Positions 16,716 to 28,587 of a DNA stretch of 64,000 nucleotides are shown piece after piece. Numbering within the stretch: the first letter of the stretch is position 1; each line of letters begins with the position of its first letter. The position numbers and the translations under genes are program-made. The notes beneath the pieces were generated by a model that saw only the letters and a program-made list of their open reading frames with translations, did no database searches and was not told where the DNA came from. This stretch comes from Armatimonadota bacterium (GTDB lineage: Bacteria; Sysuimicrobiota; Sysuimicrobiia; Sysuimicrobiales; Humicultoraceae): NCBI GenBank assembly GCA_037443365.1, contig JBBIOM010000004.1, positions 32,001 through 96,000 of the forward strand. The letters run 5' to 3'.

Positions 16716-18113
16716 ATGCCCGAGGAGGGTCCGCCCCTGCGCCTCCTGCCCTCAGTGGACCGAGTGGTGGAGGAGTTGCGCCGGCGGGGTCTGCTCGATG
16801 CGTTCTCACGCAGGGCGGCCACGCTGGCGGTCCAGCATGCGGTGGACGAGGCGCGCCGCGCGCTACGTGAGGGAGGAGGCGGCGTGGAGCACGAAGCCAT
16901 CGCGGATCGCGCCGCGGCAGTGCTGCGGCGGCAGTTCGGCGGCGGTCCCAGGCGCGTCATCAACGCGAGCGGCATCATACTGCACACAAACCTCGGACGC
17001 GCTCCCCTCTCCGTGGCGGCGCAGGCGGCGCTGGGTGAAGTCTCGTCCGGCTACTGCGCCCTGGAGATCGACCTGGAGAGCGGGGAGCGCGGCAGCCGCG
17101 CCGCGCACGTCGAGCCGCTGCTGACCGCCCTGACCGGGGCCGAGGCCGGCTTCGCGGTGAACAACGCCGCAGCCGCGGTCGTGCTTGCCCTGGCGGCCCT
17201 GGCCACCGGACGCGAGGTGCTGGTCGGGCGCGGCGAGCTCGTTGAGATCGGAGGCGGATTCCGGCTGCCCGACGTCATGCGCGCAAGCGGCGCCCGCCTC
17301 GTGGAGGTGGGAACGACCAACCGTACGTACCTGTCGGACTACGCGAGGGCACTGGGCGAACAGACGGGCATGTTGCTGAAGGTGCATCGGAGCAACTTCT
17401 CCCAGAGCGGGTTCGTGCAGGATGTCGCGCTGTCCGAGCTTGTGGAGCTCGGGCGGAGCCGCGACGTTCCGGTCGTGCATGATCTGGGCAGCGGCTGCCT
17501 TGTTGACACGGTGCGCGTGGGACTCCCGGCAGAGCCGATGGTGCAGGCCTCGGTAGCGCAGGGCGCGGATCTGGTGATCTTCAGCGGCGACAAACTGCTG
17601 GGCGGGCCGCAGGCCGGCGTGATCGTGGGGAGGCGCGCCACGACGGACCGCTGCCGGTCCCATCCGATGGCCAGGGCCGCGCGCCTGGACAAGTTGAACC
17701 TGGCAGCGCTTGTGGCCACCCTGCGCGCCCATCTCGACCAGGACCGGGCGTGGAAGGAGATCCCGATCCTGGCGATGCTGGCGCGCGCCCCCGGGGCGCG
17801 CCGCGCTCTGGCGCGGCGCCTGGCCAGAGGGGTACTGGGGGCCGTGGGAGGGGCGGCCTCGGTGGATGTCGTGCCCACGCACGGAGAGGTGGGAGGAGGT
17901 GCGCTTCCCGGCGCCTCGATTCCGTCCTGGGCCGTCAGGATCTCCCCTGTATCTGCGCGGCCCGAGGATTGGGCCGCACGCCTCCGGACGGGATCCGTGC
18001 CGGTGCTCGGTTTCATGCGGGAAGGCGCACTGCATCTGGACGTCCTGGCGCTGCTGCCCGGGGAGGAGCGGCGGATCCCGGCGCTGCTTCGGGCCGCCGC
18101 TTTCCCCGACTGA
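16716..18113 (+). CDS. selA: L-seryl-tRNA(Sec) selenium transferase
   Basis: [40 protein letters not shown], and the PLP-lysine motif [13 protein letters not shown]. Confidence 0.96.
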
Positions 18114-20032
18114 TGCATCCGGTCACAATCGGCACCGCAGGGCACATAGACCACGGCAAGAGCGCGCTGGTGCGGGCGCTGACCGGCACCGACCCCGACC
18201 GCCTGGCCGAGGAGCAACGGCGCGGAATGACCCTTGATCTGGGCTTCGCGCACCTGGACCTGCCTGGGGGCCGGCGCGTGGGCATAGTGGATGTGCCAGG
18301 ACACGAAGCGCTCGTGCACAACATGCTGGCCGGGGCCGGAGGCATAGATCTGGTCATGCTCGTGGTGGCCGCCGACGAAGGCGCGATGCCACAGACACGG
18401 GAGCATGTGGACATCCTGCGCTTCCTCTGCCCCTGGGGCGGTGTGGTGGTCATCAGCAAGATGGACCTTGGGCCTGACCCGGAATGGCTGGCCGCGGTCG
18501 AGGAGGACCTTTCCGGGCTTGTGGCTGGGACGGCCCTGGAGGGCGCGCCGCTCGTGCACGTCTCGGCCAGGACCGGCGACGGGCTGGCAGAGCTGGTGCG
18601 CGTGCTCGCACGCCTGGTGGAGCAGGTACCGGAGAGATCGGCCGACGGTCCGGCACGCATGCCCGTGGATCGCTCCTTCACGATGCAGGGATTTGGCACC
18701 GTGGTAACCGGCACGGTATGGAACGGGCGCATCCTGCAAGGGGACACCCTGGTGCTGCTGCCATCGGGCCGGCAGGCAAGGGTGCGTGGCATCCAGGTCC
18801 ACGGCGTGGCTGTACCTGAGGCGACGGCGGGCAGCCGGGCCGCGGTCAATCTGGCCGGAGTCGAGAAGAGCGAGGCCAGGCGGGGCGACGTCCTGGCCAC
18901 GCCCGGCGCTTTCCGCGTCACCGACCGGCTGGACGTCCGCCTGAGACTCCTTCCTCACGCGCCCGCGCTGCGGCACGCCGCGCGGCTGCACGTCCACATC
19001 GGCGCCGGCGAGACCATCGGACGCGCGGTGCTGGCCGGACGCGGCGCGCTGGCCCCCGGCGAGGAGGGACTGGCCCAGATCCGCCTGGAGGCCCAGGTGG
19101 TCGCCGTGCATGGCGATCGGTTCGTGGTGCGGCGCTACTCGCCCACGAGCACCGTCGGGGGCGGGACCGTCCTGAACCCCGCGCCGTCGCGGCGACGCCG
19201 CGGTACACCTGCCGCGGCCGAGATGGACGCAGGCGAGAAGGGAGGCGCCGGGGCGCTCGTCGTGGCCGCGGTTACAGCGCGGGGACGCGCCGGAATGGCT
19301 CCCTCTGAGGTCGCGGCCGAATCTGGCGTGACCGAGCCCGTCGCCCGGGCCGCGCTTGCGAAGGCGGTTGAGGAGGGCGCCGTCCAGGACGTGGGCGCCC
19401 GCGTCTACGCGACGTCGGCGGTGCTCGAAACGCGCCGCGCCATAGAGGAAGCCCTGGGAGCATACCACAGGGCCGAGCCGTGGCGCCGCGGCATGCCGCG
19501 CGAGGAGCTCAAGAGGCGGGTACAGGCCGGGCCCCGCGACCCTCTGCTGGAGGCGGTGCTGGCACAGCTCTTGGGCGCGGGGGGCCTGGTGGAGACCCGA
19601 GGCTTGCTGGCGCTGGCAGGGCACACACCGAGGGTGGGGGAGGGCGAAAGGGCGCTGCGCGAGGCCCTCCTGGCGTTGCTGGAGCGGGCGGGTATCCAAC
19701 CCCTCCCGGGCGGGGAAATCGAGCGCCTGGGGCCTCCCAGTGCCCTGAACAGGGCGTTCCAGGCGCTGATCGACGAGGCCCTGGCCGTGCAGATAGCGCC
19801 CGACCTGCGGATCGCCGCGCGCGCGGCGGAGCAGGCCCGGCAGGCCGTGCTCGAGATGCTCCAACAGGGTACGCCAGTGAGTGTGGCGTCGCTACGTGAC
19901 CGGCTTCAGACCAACAGGAAGTACGCGCTGGCCCTGCTGGAGTACCTGGATTCGGCGCGGGTTACGCGCCGCGTGGGCGACCGGCGGATCCCCGGCCCCC
20001 TGGCCGAGCAGCCGCTCTGGCCGCCTGGCTAG
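18113..20032 (+). CDS. selB: Selenocysteine-specific elongation factor
   Basis: [18 protein letters not shown]-terminal winged-helix motif [24 protein letters not shown] overlap with selA. Confidence 0.96.
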
Positions 20033-21341: not shown

Positions 21342-21436
21342 GGAGGGCATTGTTCGCTGGTGCGGGCCCCGGTCTTCAAAACCGGTCGCTGGGCTTGACG
21401 GTCCAGGCTGGGTTCGATTCCCAGGGCCCTCCGCCA
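21342..21436 (+). tRNA. selC: tRNA-Sec (anticodon UCA)
   Basis: 95 nt; 6-bp D stem with 4-nt TGGT loop; anticodon loop CT-TCA-AA (TCA 21376-21378); long variable arm; CTGGG-TTCGATT-CCCAG T arm; G73-CCA end. Confidence 0.96.
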
Positions 21437-21902: not shown

Positions 21903-23003
21903 GTGATGGGACCCGCAGACGCCGGCCGCCAGCAGCCCGGCCCGCCCCTGGCGCAGCCTGCGGCGACGCACGCCCGCAGAAACCCGATCCGGCGCCTGGC
22001 CCGGGCGCCGCTGCTGCTCAAGATCCTGGTGGCCAACGCCGGCATCGTGGTGCTGGGCGCCGTGGCCGGGACAGCGATCTCGCTCCGCCACGGTGCCGTC
22101 CATCCCGGCGCCCCGCACTACGACCTTATGATCCTCTTTGGGACAGCCGGCGTGGCGGTGAGCGTGGCCGTCAACTTCCTGGTGCTGCGGGCCGTGTTGA
22201 GGCCACTGGATCACCTGCAGCGGGCCGTGGACGCGGTGGCCGAGGGGGAGCGCGGCGTGCGCGTGGCACGCTACGGCCTCTCCGATGACCGCCTCGACCA
22301 CCTGGCCGACACCTTTGACCGCATGATCGCGGCGCTGGAGGAGCAGGCCGAGCGGCTGCGGCTGTTGCCCGGGCAGATCCTCCGGGCGCAGGAGGAGGAG
22401 CGGCGCCGGGTGGCGCGCGAACTGCACGACGAGGCCGCCCAGTCGCTCACATCGCTGCTGGTGCGCCTGCGGCTGCTGGAGCAGGCCCAGGCGCCGGAGG
22501 CGGCGCAGCAGCGGGTCGCCGAGCTGCGCCGGCTCACAGCGCGGGCCCTCGACGACGTGCGGCGGATCGCCCTGGAGATGCGGCCCTCGGTTCTCGACGA
22601 CCTGGGGCTGGCTGATGCGCTCCACGCGCACGTCGACGGCCTCAACGCGTCTGGCAGTACGCGGATCAGCCTGCTGACCGAGGGCCTCGGCGTCCGCCTG
22701 GAACCCGGGGTGGAGTTGGCCCTCTACCGGGTGGCCCAGGAGGCACTGACCAACGCCAGGCGGCACGCCCGGGCGTCGGCGGCACGGGTGCGGATCCACC
22801 GGGAGGGGTCCGACGTCGTCCTGGAGGTGGAGGATGACGGCGCCGGCTTCGACCCGCATCAGGCCTCCTCCAGAGGGAGCGGGCTAGGCCTGGCCGGCAT
22901 GCGCGAGCGCATGGGTCTGATTGGCGGGACGCTGACGATCAGGTCAGCCCCAGGGCAGGGGACCACGGTGGTGGCGCGGGTCAGCCTGAGGGAGCGGAGG
23001 TAG
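21903..23003 (+). CDS. Sensor histidine kinase (2 TM, HAMP, HisKA_3/NarX-type, HATPase)
   Basis: EERRRVARELHDE H-box, QEALTNARRH N-box, EDDGAGF and GLGLAGMRER G-boxes. Confidence 0.92.
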   Translation: MMGPADAGRQQPGPPLAQPAATHARRNPIRRLARAPLLLKILVANAGIVVLGAVAGTAISLRHGAVHPGAPHYDLMILFGTAGVAVSVAVNFLVLRAVLRPLDHLQRAVDAVAEGERGVRVARYGLSDDRLDHLADTFDRMIAALEEQAERLRLLPGQILRAQEEERRRVARELHDEAAQSLTSLLVRLRLLEQAQAPEAAQQRVAELRRLTARALDDVRRIALEMRPSVLDDLGLADALHAHVDGLNASGSTRISLLTEGLGVRLEPGVELALYRVAQEALTNARRHARASAARVRIHREGSDVVLEVEDDGAGFDPHQASSRGSGLGLAGMRERMGLIGGTLTIRSAPGQGTTVVARVSLRERR

Positions 23004-23008
23004 CCGGG

Positions 23009-23671
23009 ATGTCGGGGCCCATCCGCGTTCTGCTTGCCGATGACCACCCTGTTCTCCGTACCGGGCTGCGCACGTTGCTGGAGCAGGAACCCGACATGGC
23101 CGTTGTGGGTGAGGCCTCCGACGGGCACGAGGCGGTCGCTCTGGCGCAGCGGCTGCGCCCCGACGTGATCGTAATGGACATTAGCATGCCCGGGCTGGAC
23201 GGCCTTGAGGCCACGCGCCGGATACGCGCCCTCGGCCTGTCCTCCCCCGTCTTGATCCTGACGGTGCACGCCCAGGAGCGGTACCTGTTTCCGGTGCTCA
23301 AGGCCGGAGCCGCGGGCTACCTGAACAAGACCGCGGCGGACATGGAACTCGTGGCCGCGGCGCGCACCGTAGCCGGCGGTGGGGCGTTCCTGCACCCGGG
23401 CGCCACGCGCATGCTGCTCGAGGACTTCGTGACCCGCGTGCACACGGGCGCGGAGAAGGACAGCTTCGACCGGCTCAGCGAGCGAGAGCGCGAGGTCCTG
23501 AGGATGGTGGCCTCGGGTTACACTTCACGCGAGATCGCCGACCATCTCAGCCTGAGCCCAAAGAGCGTGGAGACGTATCGCGCCCGCATCATGGAGAAAC
23601 TGGAGCTGTCGACCCGCGCCGAGCTAGTGCGCTACGCCCTGCGGCGCGGCCTGCTGACAGGAGACGTGTAG
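23009..23671 (+). CDS. NarL/LuxR-family response regulator (NreC-like)
   Basis: LADDH, MDISMP, YLNK receiver motifs; LSEREREVL...SPKSVETYR HTH. Confidence 0.93.
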   Translation: MSGPIRVLLADDHPVLRTGLRTLLEQEPDMAVVGEASDGHEAVALAQRLRPDVIVMDISMPGLDGLEATRRIRALGLSSPVLILTVHAQERYLFPVLKAGAAGYLNKTAADMELVAAARTVAGGGAFLHPGATRMLLEDFVTRVHTGAEKDSFDRLSEREREVLRMVASGYTSREIADHLSLSPKSVETYRARIMEKLELSTRAELVRYALRRGLLTGDV

Positions 23672-23785: not shown

Positions 23786-24247
23786 GTGATGGATCCGATG
23801 GCCTTCTTCCTGCTTGTGGCCGAGTGCGACGCCGATTTCCGCGAGACGCTGCGGGAGATGACCGGCGCAGTGCGAGCCGCCCTTCCGATTGATCTTGAGG
23901 TCCAGGAAGCCACTTCGGCGAGTGAGACTCGCGTCACGCTCCAGGAACGGCGTCCCGATGCGCTGCTCCTGGACTGGAATGTGACGGCCGAGGGGACCGT
24001 GCCCTTCGTTCAAGAACTCCAGGGCCTCGCCCCCGGCATACGCATCATGGTGATGCTGCCCGAGGCGGCCGGGGAGTACCGGAGGGCCGTCTGGGCGGCA
24101 GGCGCCTGCGCGGGCATGCCGCGCGACCGCCTTGACGCCGAGTGCCTGGCCACGGCCATCTGCATCATGCAGCGCGCCAAGATGCGCGAGACGGCGCTGC
24201 GCTCCCGCGTGAGGGAACTCTGCCCGGCTACGGCCGAAGTGCTGTGA
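23786..24247 (+). CDS. Stand-alone atypical receiver-domain protein
   Basis: PDALLLDW with the phospho-Asp position kept; other receiver residues degenerate; 5 Cys; TGATG overlap with psrA. Confidence 0.65.
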   Translation: MMDPMAFFLLVAECDADFRETLREMTGAVRAALPIDLEVQEATSASETRVTLQERRPDALLLDWNVTAEGTVPFVQELQGLAPGIRIMVMLPEAAGEYRRAVWAAGACAGMPRDRLDAECLATAICIMQRAKMRETALRSRVRELCPATAEVL

Positions 24248-26535
24248 TGAGGGTCTCCCGCAGGGAGTTCATGGTACTCGGCACCGGTGCCGCGGGTGCG
24301 CTGGCGGCGGCCTCTGCGCCCAGCCTGCTGCGCCGGTTCTTGCCGCCTCGCCGACGCTTCTGGTACCAGAACGCCACGACCGCCATCCCGACCGTGTGCG
24401 AGATGTGCCTGTGGCGGTGCGGCGCCATCGCACACGTTGCCGACGGCCGCGTGTGGAAGATTGACGGGCATCCCGACAACCCCAAGTCCAATGGTCGGCT
24501 GTGTGCGAGGGGCTTGGGAGGCCTGGGCGAGCTCTACGATCCCGACCGGCTCAAGAAGCCCCTGATCCGCACCGGGAAGCGGGGCGAGGGGACGTTTCGA
24601 GAGGCGTCCTGGGACGAGGCGCTCGACCTGTCGGCCAAGGCGCTGCTGGAGATCAAGGAGCAGTACGGTCCCGAGGCCGTCGCCTTCTTCGGGCACTATG
24701 CCGGGGACAAATGGTTCGTGGACTACCTGGCGCCAGCCTGGGGGTCTCCCAACGCCGGCAAACCCTCCGTAGCCCTGTGCACCACGCCCCGAGAGGTCGC
24801 GAGCAACCTGACCTTCGGCAGGCCGATTGGTGGCCACGAGCCGGTGGACTGGGACGATGTCCGCTACCTCGTGCTTTTCGGCACCCATATCGGCGAGAAC
24901 GCCCACAACACCATGATGCAGCAGTTCGCCGCAGCCCGGGCCCGGGGCGCCAAGGTCGCTGTCGTGGATCCTCGCTTCTCCACGGTGGCCTCTAAGGCCG
25001 ACCGGTACCTGCCGATCAAGCCCGGCACCGACACCGCGCTGCTGCTTGCCTGGATGCACTGGCTCATCGCCCGCGGCCACTACGACGCTGATTACATAGC
25101 GCGGTACGCCGAGGGCTTCGACAAACTTGCCGAGCACGTGAAGCCCTTCACGCCGGAGTGGGCCGCGAAGATCACCGATCTACCGGTCGAGCAGGTCGTG
25201 GAGGTCGCGAAGGACCTCTGCCGCTATCGGCCGCAGGCGGTCCTGGTGCCCGGCCGGCACGTGGTGTGGTACGGCAACGACACCCAGCGGATGCGGGCGC
25301 TGTACCTGGTCAACATCCTGCTGGGCAACTACGGCCGGCGCGGCGGGTTCTACATCGCGGAGTCGCCGTACATCGAGGACTACCCGCTGCCGCCGTTTCC
25401 TATCGGATCCGAAGCGGGCGGCTGAGCAGGTCCTGCGCCCTCCGGTCCGGAGGGCCCCTCAGATCGGAAGCCGCGCGCCGACGGGCAGGGAGCGCGGTTC
25501 CTGCGGGGCGGCGTCGCCATCCAGGAACTGGTCGAGCCCATGGTCTCGGGCCAGCCGTACCCGATCAAGGGCCTGGTGAGCTACGCCGTCAACCTGTTCC
25601 ACACCCTTCCGAATCCGGCACGCACACGCGAGGCCCTGGAGCGGCTCGACTTCCACCTGGCCATAGACATCCTGCCGCAGGAGCACACGCGCTGGGCCGA
25701 CGTCGTGCTCCCCGAGTGCACCTATCTCGAGCGCTACGACGACCTCATCACCGTGGCCCACAAGCGGCCCTTCATCGCGCTGCGGCAGCCTGTCGTTCAG
25801 CCCATGCACGACACCAAGCCGGGCTGGTGGATCGCCCGCGAACTGGGGCTCCGCCTGGGGCTGGAGCAGTACTTCCCCTGGAAGACGATCGAGGAGTACC
25901 TGGAGCAGCGCCTCAACTCGGTGGGCCTCACGCTGGAGGAGATGAAGCAGAAGGGCGTCAGCATCCAGAAGGGCCGGCCGTACCTGGAGGACTGGGAGGG
26001 GAGAGGGACGCCCTTCAAGATGACCGGGGGCAAGATCGTGATCTACTGCGAAGAACTCGCGAAGGCTGGGCACGATCCGCTGCCCCGCTACGAGCCGACC
26101 CCCGAGCCCCCAGAAGGGTACTTCCGGCTCATCTATGGCCGCGCGCCCGTCCACACTTTCGCGCGCACGCAGAACAACCCGGTGCTCGCCCGGCTGATGG
26201 CCGATAACGAGGTCTGGATCAATCGCGAGGCGGCCGCCGATCTCGGCCTCGCCGACGGTGATCGCGTCATGCTGGTCAACCAGGATGGCGCCAGGAGCGG
26301 GCCGGTCAGGGTGCGGGCCACCTCGCGCATCCGCAGGGACTGCGTCTACATGGTGCACGGTTTCGGCCACAACGCCCCTGGGATGCGCCGGGCCCACGGT
26401 CGAGGGGCCAGCGATACGGCACTGCAAACCCGTTATGCCATCGACCCGATCAGCGGTGGAGCCGGGTTGCGAGTCAACTTCGTCCGGCTGGAGCGGGGCA
26501 GCCGCACATCGCACCGCGCGGCCGGGAGGGCGTAG
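24247..26535 (+). CDS. psrA: Polysulfide/thiosulfate reductase catalytic subunit (Mo/W-bisPGD, PsrA/PhsA family); predicted selenoprotein with Sec at codon 393 (UGA 25423-25425)
   Basis: Tat signal SRREFM; FS0 motif CEMCLWRC...LCARG; Mo-ligand motif SVALCTTPRE; ORFs 24142..25425 and 25540..26535 are in one frame with only one TGA between them; 762 aa when read through; SECIS-like hairpin downstream; selABC nearby. Confidence 0.9.
25422..25462 (+). promoter_or_regulatory. Bacterial SECIS-like element of psrA
   Basis: Upper stem GCCCTCC (25437-25443)/GGAGGGC (25449-25455) with a GGTCC loop, starting 11 nt after the UGA; lower pairing CTGAG (25422-25426)/CTCAG (25458-25462). Confidence 0.82.
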
Positions 26536-26538
26536 GCG

Positions 26539-27111
26539 ATGGCGCGCTTTGGGATGGCGGTGGACCTCGATCGGTGCGTCGGTTGTCAGGCCTGCGCGGT
26601 AGCCTGCGCTGTGGAGAACGAGGTTCCCGAGGGCTTCGCGCGCCGGAGGGTAGGCGAGGTGGTCGCCGGTTGGGACCTCGACGACCTGCGTCTCCAGTTC
26701 CTGCACATGCAGTGCTACCACTGCGCCAACCCCCCCTGCATCCTGGTCTGCCCCACCGGCGCGACCTACATCAACCGCGACGGCCTCTGCCTTGTGGACT
26801 ACAACATCTGCATCGGCTGCCGGGCATGCGTCTCCGCCTGTCCCTACGGGATGCGCTACCCGCATCCGCGCGGCTTCGTGGACAAGTGCTCCATGTGTGA
26901 CCACCGGATCCACAGCGACCGTCATCCGGCCTGCGTCGAAGCGTGCCCCGCAGGAGCACTGGTCTTCGGTGACCTCGACGACCCGAACAGCGCCATCAGC
27001 CAGGCCGCCGCCGCGGCAAGCCGCGTCGAGGCAGACCGCCCAGAGACCGGCGCCCGGCCCAAGTTCCTCTTCCTCAACGCCCGGGTCAGTCCGCAGGAGG
27101 TGCGTCGGTGA
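26539..27111 (+). CDS. psrB: 4x[4Fe-4S] electron-transfer subunit (PsrB/NrfC family)
   Basis: CVGCQACAVAC, CYHCANPPCILVCP, CIGCRACVSACP, KCSMC...PACVEACP. Confidence 0.92.
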   Translation: MARFGMAVDLDRCVGCQACAVACAVENEVPEGFARRRVGEVVAGWDLDDLRLQFLHMQCYHCANPPCILVCPTGATYINRDGLCLVDYNICIGCRACVSACPYGMRYPHPRGFVDKCSMCDHRIHSDRHPACVEACPAGALVFGDLDDPNSAISQAAAAASRVEADRPETGARPKFLFLNARVSPQEVRR

Positions 27112-28034
27112 TCGAACTTCGCGACTCGGTCCTCAACACAACACTCCATCTGTGGGGCTGGGAGGTGGCGGTCTACCTGTTCCTGGGCGGCCTGGCAGCC
27201 GGGCTGCTGATCTTCGCCTCATCGGCGCACCTGGCCGGCCGTCGGCGGGAGTACTACCCAGCGGTCCGCGCGGCGACGCTGTGGACCCCGCCGATCATCC
27301 TGGTCGGCTTGGTCTCCCTCTGGCTCGACCTGGGCAGCAAGTGGAACCCGTTCTGGTTGTACCTGACCTTCCGGCCGTTGAGCCCGATGTCGTGGGGCGC
27401 CTGGATCCTGATCGCGGTGCTGCTCACCTCCTCGCTGGCCTCGGTCCCGGCGATCGCCGCACGAGGGGCATGGCCATGGCATCGGTCGAGAACAGCCCTA
27501 GACCGCCTCGCGCGATGGGTGGGGCCGCGCGTGCGCACGCTCTCTTGGTGGAATCTTGGCATGGGCGTGGCCCTGGGGGTCTATACCGGCGTCCTCCTCG
27601 GGACCATGGTCGCGCGCCCGGCGCTCAACAGCCCGCTGCTCGGCCCGCTGTTTCTGGTCTCCGGAGCATCTACCGCCGGGGCCCTGATCGTGATCCTCAT
27701 CCCCGGCGGGCCGTGGGGTCGCCTGCTGACCCGTGCCGAGGTGGCAGTGAAACTGATCAAGTTCTCGATGCTCGGGCTGTATCTGGTTGGCCTGGCGACC
27801 TCCACCGCCTATGCACAGGCCGCCGCCGCCACGCTGGTAGCCGGTGCCTGGGCCTGGGTATTCTGGCCGGTCGTCGTGGTGGCAGGCGTGCTGGCGCCTC
27901 TGGGGATCGCGCTGGCTGAGATCGTCACACACCGTGTCAGCCGCGCCCTGGCACTGCTATCCAGTTCGATGGTCCTGGCAGGCGGGCTGGCTCTCAGGAT
28001 CGTGCTGGTGTACGCCGGACAGCGCGGATTCTGA
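27108..28034 (+). CDS. psrC: NrfD/PsrC-family membrane anchor (quinone-interacting)
   Basis: WGWEVAVYLFLGGLAAG, SPMSWGAWIL and YTGVLL motifs; about 8 TM. Confidence 0.9.
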   Translation: MIELRDSVLNTTLHLWGWEVAVYLFLGGLAAGLLIFASSAHLAGRRREYYPAVRAATLWTPPIILVGLVSLWLDLGSKWNPFWLYLTFRPLSPMSWGAWILIAVLLTSSLASVPAIAARGAWPWHRSRTALDRLARWVGPRVRTLSWWNLGMGVALGVYTGVLLGTMVARPALNSPLLGPLFLVSGASTAGALIVILIPGGPWGRLLTRAEVAVKLIKFSMLGLYLVGLATSTAYAQAAAATLVAGAWAWVFWPVVVVAGVLAPLGIALAEIVTHRVSRALALLSSSMVLAGGLALRIVLVYAGQRGF

Positions 28035-28137
28035 ACCGCGAAGGGAGGGAGACAGACTACTACCCGCATCCAGTTCGTCACGTGAAGGCCGCTCGTGAAC
28101 GAGCCCGACAACAACCATGCTTCAGGGAGGGAGTTTG

Positions 28138-28587
28138 ATGAAGAGAGCACACCTGGTCATTCTCGGCCTGGCCATCGCCATGGTCGTGGCAGCGCCGGCC
28201 GTCAGCAGGGAGTGGATCGAGCGGCCGTTCGTGACAGCCGCCGAGCGGATGCTGGCGACAATGCCGGCCGACTTCTTCCAGATGGATCCGACGGCTGTCC
28301 AGCGGCTGATGGAGACCGCTCAGCCGCTGATCCTCGACGTGCGTGAGAAAGCGGAGTGGGACGCCGAGCGCATCGCCGGCTCGGTGCACGTGCCGATCCG
28401 CGAGTTGGCCAAGTTCATTGACAGGCTGCCCGACAGCAGGGGTGCACCGATCGTGGCCGTGTGCAAGATCGGCTACCGCGGCGGGATCGCCATGACGATG
28501 CTGCGCATGTGGGGGTACACCAACGTGCGCGCGATGCGCGGCGGGCTCGACGCCTGGAAGGCCGCCGGGCTGCCCGTGACCAAGTAG
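28138..28587 (+). CDS. Exported rhodanese-domain sulfurtransferase
   Basis: Signal peptide (MKRAHLVILGLAIAMVVAAPA); LDVRE, VCKIGYR active loop, GGLDAW. Confidence 0.85.
   Translation: MKRAHLVILGLAIAMVVAAPAVSREWIERPFVTAAERMLATMPADFFQMDPTAVQRLMETAQPLILDVREKAEWDAERIAGSVHVPIRELAKFIDRLPDSRGAPIVAVCKIGYRGGIAMTMLRMWGYTNVRAMRGGLDAWKAAGLPVTK

Follow-up and report, generated by a model that had tools for sequence, protein, structure and literature searches.

A Thermus-type PsrA with predicted selenocysteine at a non-ligand position, a conserved and widespread candidate selenoprotein form

The psr locus and its in-frame UGA

The window analysed here is a 64,000-nt stretch of DNA from an Armatimonadota bacterium (GCA_037443365.1, contig JBBIOM010000004.1, positions 32,001-96,000, forward strand), and coordinates refer to it unless another contig is named. 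It encodes PsrA, the catalytic molybdoenzyme subunit of a PsrABC-type complex, in a frame that holds one internal TGA, predicted to be read as selenocysteine (Sec). Sequence comparison supports Thermus-type PsrA with Sec away from the metal ligand as a genuine candidate selenoprotein form that is both conserved and widespread. The features of the locus are as follows:

24247..26535, + strand: psrA, catalytic subunit with molybdenum-bis(pyranopterin guanine dinucleotide) (Mo-bisPGD), 762 aa with predicted Sec393 and the twin-arginine translocation (Tat) signal SRREFM (frame, Pfam, match to 2vpw_A)
25423..25425, + strand: in-frame UGA, codon 393, predicted to be read as Sec, aligned with Cys388 of Thermus PsrA (alignment, recurrence, contigs of other runs)
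24778..24780, + strand: TGC for Cys178, the Mo ligand, equivalent to Cys173 of Thermus PsrA (alignment; invariant in 108 sequences)
25437..25455, + strand: candidate Sec insertion sequence (SECIS) hairpin (folding, likeness to fdhA, covariation)
26539..27111, + strand: psrB, four-cluster ferredoxin subunit (Pfam Fer4_11 and related families)
27108..28034, + strand: psrC, NrfD-type membrane quinol-binding subunit (Pfam NrfD, 6.7e-34)
28117..28587, + strand: single-domain rhodanese, 156 aa, directly after psrC; its N-terminus resembles a signal peptide, and it has a CKIGYR loop
16716..18113, + strand: selA, selenocysteine synthase (SelA, 3.4e-132)
~18113..20032, + strand: selB, Sec-specific elongation factor (profile match; start inferred, the ATG overlapping the selA stop)
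21342..21436, + strand: selC, tRNA-Sec, anticodon tca (tRNA detection)
21903..23003, + strand: HisKA_3 histidine kinase of a two-component system, upstream of psrA (Pfam)
23009..23671, + strand: LuxR-type response regulator of the same two-component system, which lies directly upstream of psrA (Pfam)

The TGA at codon 393 is the sole one in the psrA frame; it lies in the peptide PPFPIGSEAGG-U-AGPAPSGPEGPSDRKPRADG, the frame stays open for 369 codons past it, and read-through gives 762 residues. The initial annotation of this DNA had described such a single frame with a lone TGA, a Sec away from the Mo ligand, a hairpin with a GGU loop 11 nt past the UGA, and selABC 3-8 kb upstream. Its coordinates and codon number were reproduced, Cys178 is indeed kept as the ligand, the hairpin was found, and selA, selB and the tRNA-Sec gene all lie in the window at that distance from psrA. 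The fourth component, selD, is encoded elsewhere in the genome (G000:C21:18065-18988, - strand, locus L017; 379.7 bits against a cut-off of 125), and this gene itself contains a TGA, at CAG-U-ASKLSP, with a 7-bp hairpin starting 13 nt past the UGA. The machinery expected beside a selenoprotein gene, selA, selB, selC and selD, is thus all present.

The psrA TGA is not an assembly error. Four contigs, taken from four runs in three studies, of which two sampled hot springs, span the codon and show no difference at 25423-25425; the two hot-spring contigs are equal in size and may not be independent. TGA also terminates selA, psrB, psrC, mutS and ymdB in the window, and since it is an ordinary stop in these neighbouring genes, the genetic code is standard. 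Together with the full Sec machinery and a hairpin resembling the SECIS of the genome's own fdhA (see below), these observations make it exceedingly improbable that the TGA arose through an error of assembly or sequencing, or that it is read through without selenium as Trp, Cys or Gly, and the sequence evidence gives no pointer toward either.

Side observations at the locus concern its small overlaps and a paralogue. A 153-aa open reading frame (ORF) at 23786-24247 (+ strand), which may be no real gene, has a stop that overlaps the psrA start (TGATG) and a weak receiver-domain match (20 bits against a Pfam cut-off of 30.2). Another TGATG, at 18111-18115, joins the selA stop to the likely selB start, and this overlap suggests translational coupling. 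A further MopB-family oxidoreductase is encoded at G000:C2:29088-31034 (- strand, locus L002); it is 28% identical to PsrA and has no internal stop.

Identity of the protein and its metal ligand

Pfam assigned Molybdop_Fe4S4, Molybdopterin and Molydop_binding domains to the psrA product, the composition of a catalytic subunit of the MopB/dimethyl sulfoxide (DMSO)-reductase family. The best phmmer match among PDB sequences was Thermus thermophilus PsrA (2vpw_A; E = 0, residues 4-753), at about 62-70% identity. An AlphaFold model (mean predicted local distance difference test score, pLDDT, 90; predicted template modelling score, pTM, 0.90) superposed on 2vpw_A in Foldseek with TM scores of 0.90/0.94 and a root mean square deviation of 2.4 Å. 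In the alignment, Cys178 corresponds to the Mo ligand Cys173 of Thermus PsrA, and U393, 215 residues downstream, to Cys388 in the motif AAGGCSGP, the Cys homologue that the initial annotation had named. Across a 108-sequence alignment, C54, C58 and C86 (FeS ligands) and the Mo ligand C178 are invariant and C51 is near-invariant. The active-site residues His145 and Arg332 of Thermus PsrA correspond to H150 (near-invariant) and R337 (invariant).

The three-domain set, the Cys ligand to Mo, the Tat signal and the PsrB and PsrC partners place the protein in the PsrA/PhsA lineage. It lacks the U-H-x-P motif by which Sec-ligand enzymes are recognised: the ligand column holds Cys178, and Sec is at 393. 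The best NCBIfam model was PhsA (NF012032), at 520.6 bits and under its curated cut-off of 694, and the protein failed the test for a PhsA equivalog; NCBIfam holds no selenoprotein model for a PsrA-type protein. The psrA product is part of a periplasmic PsrABC-type complex with Cys-ligated Mo, and this complex is predicted to be a Thermus-type quinol:polysulfide/thiosulfate reductase, an activity assigned solely by homology to 2VPW.

The hairpin after the UGA

The hairpin at 25437-25455 starts 11 nt past the UGA and has an 8-bp stem (25437-25444 with 25448-25455), GCCCUCCG GUC CGGAGGGC; in an alternative fold it has 7 bp and the loop GGUCC. The same genome encodes a formate dehydrogenase with a canonical ligand Sec, which serves as an internal reference:

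G000:C2:62906-64507, - strand: fdhA with ligand Sec, locus L003 (CARV-U-HAPS)

The two sites have the same geometry. In both genes a spacer of 11 nt separates the UGA from the stem-loop, which reads GCCCUCC-GGUCC-GGAGGGC in psrA and GGUGGCC-GGUCU-GGCCGCC in fdhA. The motif CCGGUCYGG thus stands at an identical offset in both, and the stem length is also equal. GGUC is the core of the apical loop of Escherichia coli fdhF, and the loop of a bacterial SECIS lies 16-37 nt from the UGA; by this rule, the psrA hairpin with its G/U-containing loop stands at the usual distance. Among seven orthologues that have this hairpin type, 98.2% of its cells are paired and two of the eight pairs are compensatory, against 29-57% pairing in slid controls.

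A second clade of Sec forms (18 forms, see below) has a different hairpin, in which a 6-bp stem with a loop of 6 nt (e.g. AGGUCU, CGGGUU) follows a spacer of 17 nt. This hairpin also shows 98.0% pairing and two compensatory pairs (slid controls 38-69%). As a side observation, the SECIS stem-loop in these 18 metagenome forms (among loci L041-L100) fixes the peptide EEAGLPP, and the Cys-form sisters of the clade read E-E-S-x-E-L-P, one residue more; in this clade the RNA structure seems to limit which residues the loop of the protein can have.

Recurrence of Cys and Sec at column 393

The initial annotation had made its case depend on Cys or Sec at this column in homologues, on TGA rather than TGC or TGG in other reads and on selD in the genome; the last two held, as described above, and so did the first. 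Column 393 is Cys in all 120 full-length database homologues (55-87% identical over residues 300-500), and G392 and C393 are invariant in the 108-sequence alignment, which contains no invariant Cys other than the FeS ligands, the Mo ligand and C393. A scan of genome contigs with patterns from the single protein was too specific and gave five loci. Metagenome contigs were scanned without bias toward the column, using patterns built on conserved motifs in other parts of the protein, and the column was tallied through a motif anchor; among the best 80 loci, which were kept, the codon is TGC in 44, TGT in 16 and TGA in 20, and nothing else. Sec would be present in about a quarter of environmental PsrA copies.

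Within the window's phylum, 94 genomes, all of one order, were examined, and seven have a psrA orthologue: the column is TGA in five (G000, G014, G022, G029, G013) and TGT in two (G002, G041). The four TGA-bearing genomes besides the window's own belong to the same small phylum, relatives of which are named Ca. Sysuimicrobiota. Of the 25 Sec-form loci, 24 have an open frame of at least 340 codons past the TGA; in the remaining locus 248 codons are open, and its match stops no more than 2 bases from where the available DNA ends.

A FastTree phylogeny of 87 loci, built without the loop columns and supported by FastTree local values only, places the Sec forms in two well-separated Sec-rich clades, with Cys-only clades, including a Thermus-like one (23 of 23 rows Cys), between them. 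Of the 11 rows in the window's clade, 7 are Sec and 4 are Cys; of the 19 in the other, 18 are Sec and 1 is Cys. The tree requires at least five to six changes between Sec and Cys.

Truncated copies in databases

The prediction that annotation pipelines would miscall the gene was borne out. A search with the N-terminal 392 residues against the protein collection listed 114 further short proteins, and 107 of these stop precisely at column 392 with ...GG as their last residues (GAGG in 85, EAGG in 10, further variants in the others). At least 107 of the 114 are named as 390-405-aa 'molybdopterin-dependent oxidoreductase' fragments, and many lie on long contigs. Since they end just before the Sec column, these proteins are miscalled truncations; the selenium form of PsrA is common, and gene calling systematically renders it as a truncated gene. 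As a result, psrA goes unseen when metabolism is reconstructed from Chloroflexota, Myxococcota and Sysuimicrobiota-like genomes.

The same short proteins are what one would expect if the TGA were a true stop, leaving a split gene or pseudogene with a 392-aa fragment and perhaps a separate C-terminal product. Gene callers yield exactly this, and an ATG at 25540 opens a same-frame ORF of 331 aa. However, the TGA is kept in five genomes of the phylum and in a quarter of the metagenome loci, the downstream frame is intact in nearly all of the Sec-form loci, and a covarying hairpin follows the codon. The 38 residues between the TGA and the ATG at 25540 hold the invariant D412, F418 and E427, and a split would cut the Molybdopterin domain (residues 101-534). 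We therefore regard a true stop as very improbable.

The loop around residue 393

Within the PsrA/PhsA family, only the Thermus-type clade has the Gly-Gly-Cys/Sec-x-Gly-Pro loop, which is an insertion. We compared 117 representatives of 50%-identity clusters (at least 640 aa, from the best 150 of 1.84 billion proteins): the GG-C loop occurs in one of them (55% identity) and in Thermus PsrA, and there is a gap in the other 116, most of which retain the Mo-ligand Cys. A Bacteroidales homologue, 46% identical, is likewise without the loop. The initial annotation had proposed that residue 393 is a second redox-active site on a flexible segment, possibly a swinging arm that would bring sulfur or selenium to the Mo centre. 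AlphaFold confidence is low at residues 391-410 (block means of 58 and 70), which points toward flexibility of the loop; DSSP assigns isolated bridges at residues 392 and 395 of the model, which speaks against it.

Discussion

We consider it very probable that the UGA at codon 393 is decoded as Sec. The account as a whole, in which a Thermus-type PsrA has its UGA393 read as Sec through SelB and the hairpin, with Sec replacing the invariant non-ligand Cys of a clade-specific loop, is in our view a likely explanation of the data. Several observations weigh against it. First, concerning the hairpin, the 61-nt stretch folds no better than shuffles (z = 0.49), and the minimum free energy over 60 nt is no different in Sec and Cys forms (-24.6 vs -24.5); the longest stem differs, with a mean of 6.96 bp in Sec and 5.39 bp in Cys forms. 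Rfam gave no match in the 301 nt around the site, with chance-level microRNA and long non-coding RNA hits only. The hairpin also encodes the conserved peptide SGPE, and the Cys form of G002, from the same genus (TGT; locus L005, ~2518-2877), keeps an intact 8-bp hairpin, GGCCUCCG GUC CGGAGGCC; part of the hairpin conservation may thus be due to coding. Second, selA occurs in Cys-form genomes too and does not separate them from Sec-form genomes. Third, 2vpw_A has coordinates for 734 of 765 residues, which weakens the idea of a free swinging arm. The 31 residues without coordinates are, by our estimate, about as many as expected for a Tat signal peptide; if this estimate is right, the loop probably has an ordered structure in the 2VPW crystal.

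These points can be placed as follows. The folding energy of the whole region gives no support; the case for the hairpin lies in its covariation, in the conservation of its position and in its resemblance to the SECIS of fdhA. The hairpin of G002 resembles a relic SECIS that stayed behind after a recent change from Sec to Cys; in the other Cys form of the phylum, G041 (L021), the hairpin is lost. The presence of selA in Cys-form genomes means that the choice between Sec and Cys does not follow loss of the machinery. As for the loop, residue 393 may sit at a fixed site instead of on a swinging arm.

What residue 393 does is a separate question. The structure of PsrA has been known since 2008, but to our knowledge its chemistry was never resolved, and a widespread non-ligand Sec form points to an unrecognised functional residue in this enzyme. 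We propose the following sequence of events. SelB would decode UGA393 as Sec under the direction of the hairpin 11 nt past the codon, and Sec would replace an invariant Cys that is not bound to metal, Mo staying on Cys178. Residue 393 would then act as a nucleophile, either attacking polysulfide or taking sulfur from the periplasmic rhodanese encoded after psrC, which is a candidate Sud-like carrier of polysulfide sulfur. A Se-S(n) or persulfide intermediate would form on residue 393, and the Mo(IV) centre would reduce the sulfur chain carried there; selenium would be the better nucleophile and leaving group than sulfur.

An invariant Cys without a conserved partner, interchangeable with Sec, suggests a catalytic redox or nucleophilic residue, and the clade-specific loop and the precedent of MccSep (see below) also favour a catalytic role. 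Considering the substrate class (polysulfide/thiosulfate) and the adjacent exported rhodanese, a relay of sulfane sulfur is the most economical form of this role. We put forward tentatively, with slightly less than even confidence, that the lone Cys/Sec is a catalytic nucleophile handling sulfane sulfur in such a relay. The stricter two-site mechanism, in which an obligatory Cys388 or Sec of Thermus-type PsrA forms a covalent S-S(n) or Se-S(n) that is handed to Mo, is possible and somewhat more doubtful.

Sec and Cys at this position could also be real without being a relay nucleophile, either as a redox switch or protective residue, which could form a selenosulfide with the Mo-ligand Cys178 or with substrate-derived sulfur, or as a structural or second-sphere residue with a tuning effect on the Mo site. 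The probable order of the loop in the crystal and the DSSP bridges in the model fit this alternative, and disulfide redox switches are known in formate dehydrogenases of the DMSO-reductase family, which we count in its favour; our PDB matches include a tungsten formate dehydrogenase with Sec, and the Foldseek list includes its C872A mutant. However, no conserved partner Cys exists beyond the metal ligands, the neighbouring rhodanese fits sulfur transfer, and Sec mostly replaces catalytic redox Cys according to the accessible parts of PMC13188914. On this balance, we judge the switch or structural role rather unlikely.

Comparison with known systems

The closest relative is the PsrABC complex of Thermus thermophilus (2VPW/2VPX/2VPY/2VPZ), which shares the fold, the domain order, the Mo-ligand Cys, the GGC loop and the psrB and psrC partners; it differs in having Cys at 388 where Sec is predicted at 393 here. 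Wolinella succinogenes PsrA and Salmonella PhsA belong to the same PsrA/PhsA lineage. In Wolinella the rhodanese-type carrier Sud is encoded nearby (PMC2628731, in the parts accessible), and a rhodanese gene also lies near the psr genes here. The protein differs from PhsA in scoring under the PhsA cut-off, and 116 of the 117 cluster representatives through which the lineage was compared have no GG-C/U loop.

The Sec formate dehydrogenases FdhF, FdnG and FdhA, together with FwdB, share with this PsrA the MopB superfamily and a UGA with a SECIS in the coding region. In these enzymes Sec is the Mo or tungsten ligand (U-H-x-P; PMC13188914, accessible parts of Table 1), whereas here the ligand is Cys, and they are without the loop that bears Sec in the present PsrA. 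Selenoenzymes of the superfamily are described with Sec solely as the metal ligand in the accessible parts of PMC7331816, PMC10100899 and PMC13188914. The last of these, a 2026 review of prokaryotic selenoproteomes, does not use the word 'polysulfide' in the text available, and the available parts of its Table 1 have no PsrA-type or PF00384 entry. No report of a Sec-containing PsrA was found by literature searches or in the accessible text of these three sources and of PMC2500031, PMC2628731, PMC9012183 and PMC11604079; the supplementary tables of these papers could list one.

A functional parallel comes from Geobacter sulfurreducens, whose polysulfide reductase MccSep is a selenoprotein of the multihaem cytochrome c type; according to the accessible part of PMC13510729, a non-ligand Sec in this enzyme is essential for polysulfide reduction. 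Periplasmic polysulfide reduction, a Cys-ligated metal and a non-ligand Sec after Gly are features that the same part of that source gives for MccSep and that have their predicted counterparts in PsrA. MccSep differs in its unrelated fold and in having haem instead of Mo-bisPGD, and the resemblance is a functional analogy only. The PsrA described here would add one more case of selenium recruited specifically for sulfane-sulfur chemistry. If the two-site mechanism is true, PsrA would be the molybdoenzyme counterpart of the Sec-plus-metal chemistry of MccSep, and the first enzyme of the DMSO-reductase family with a catalytic non-ligand selenocysteine.

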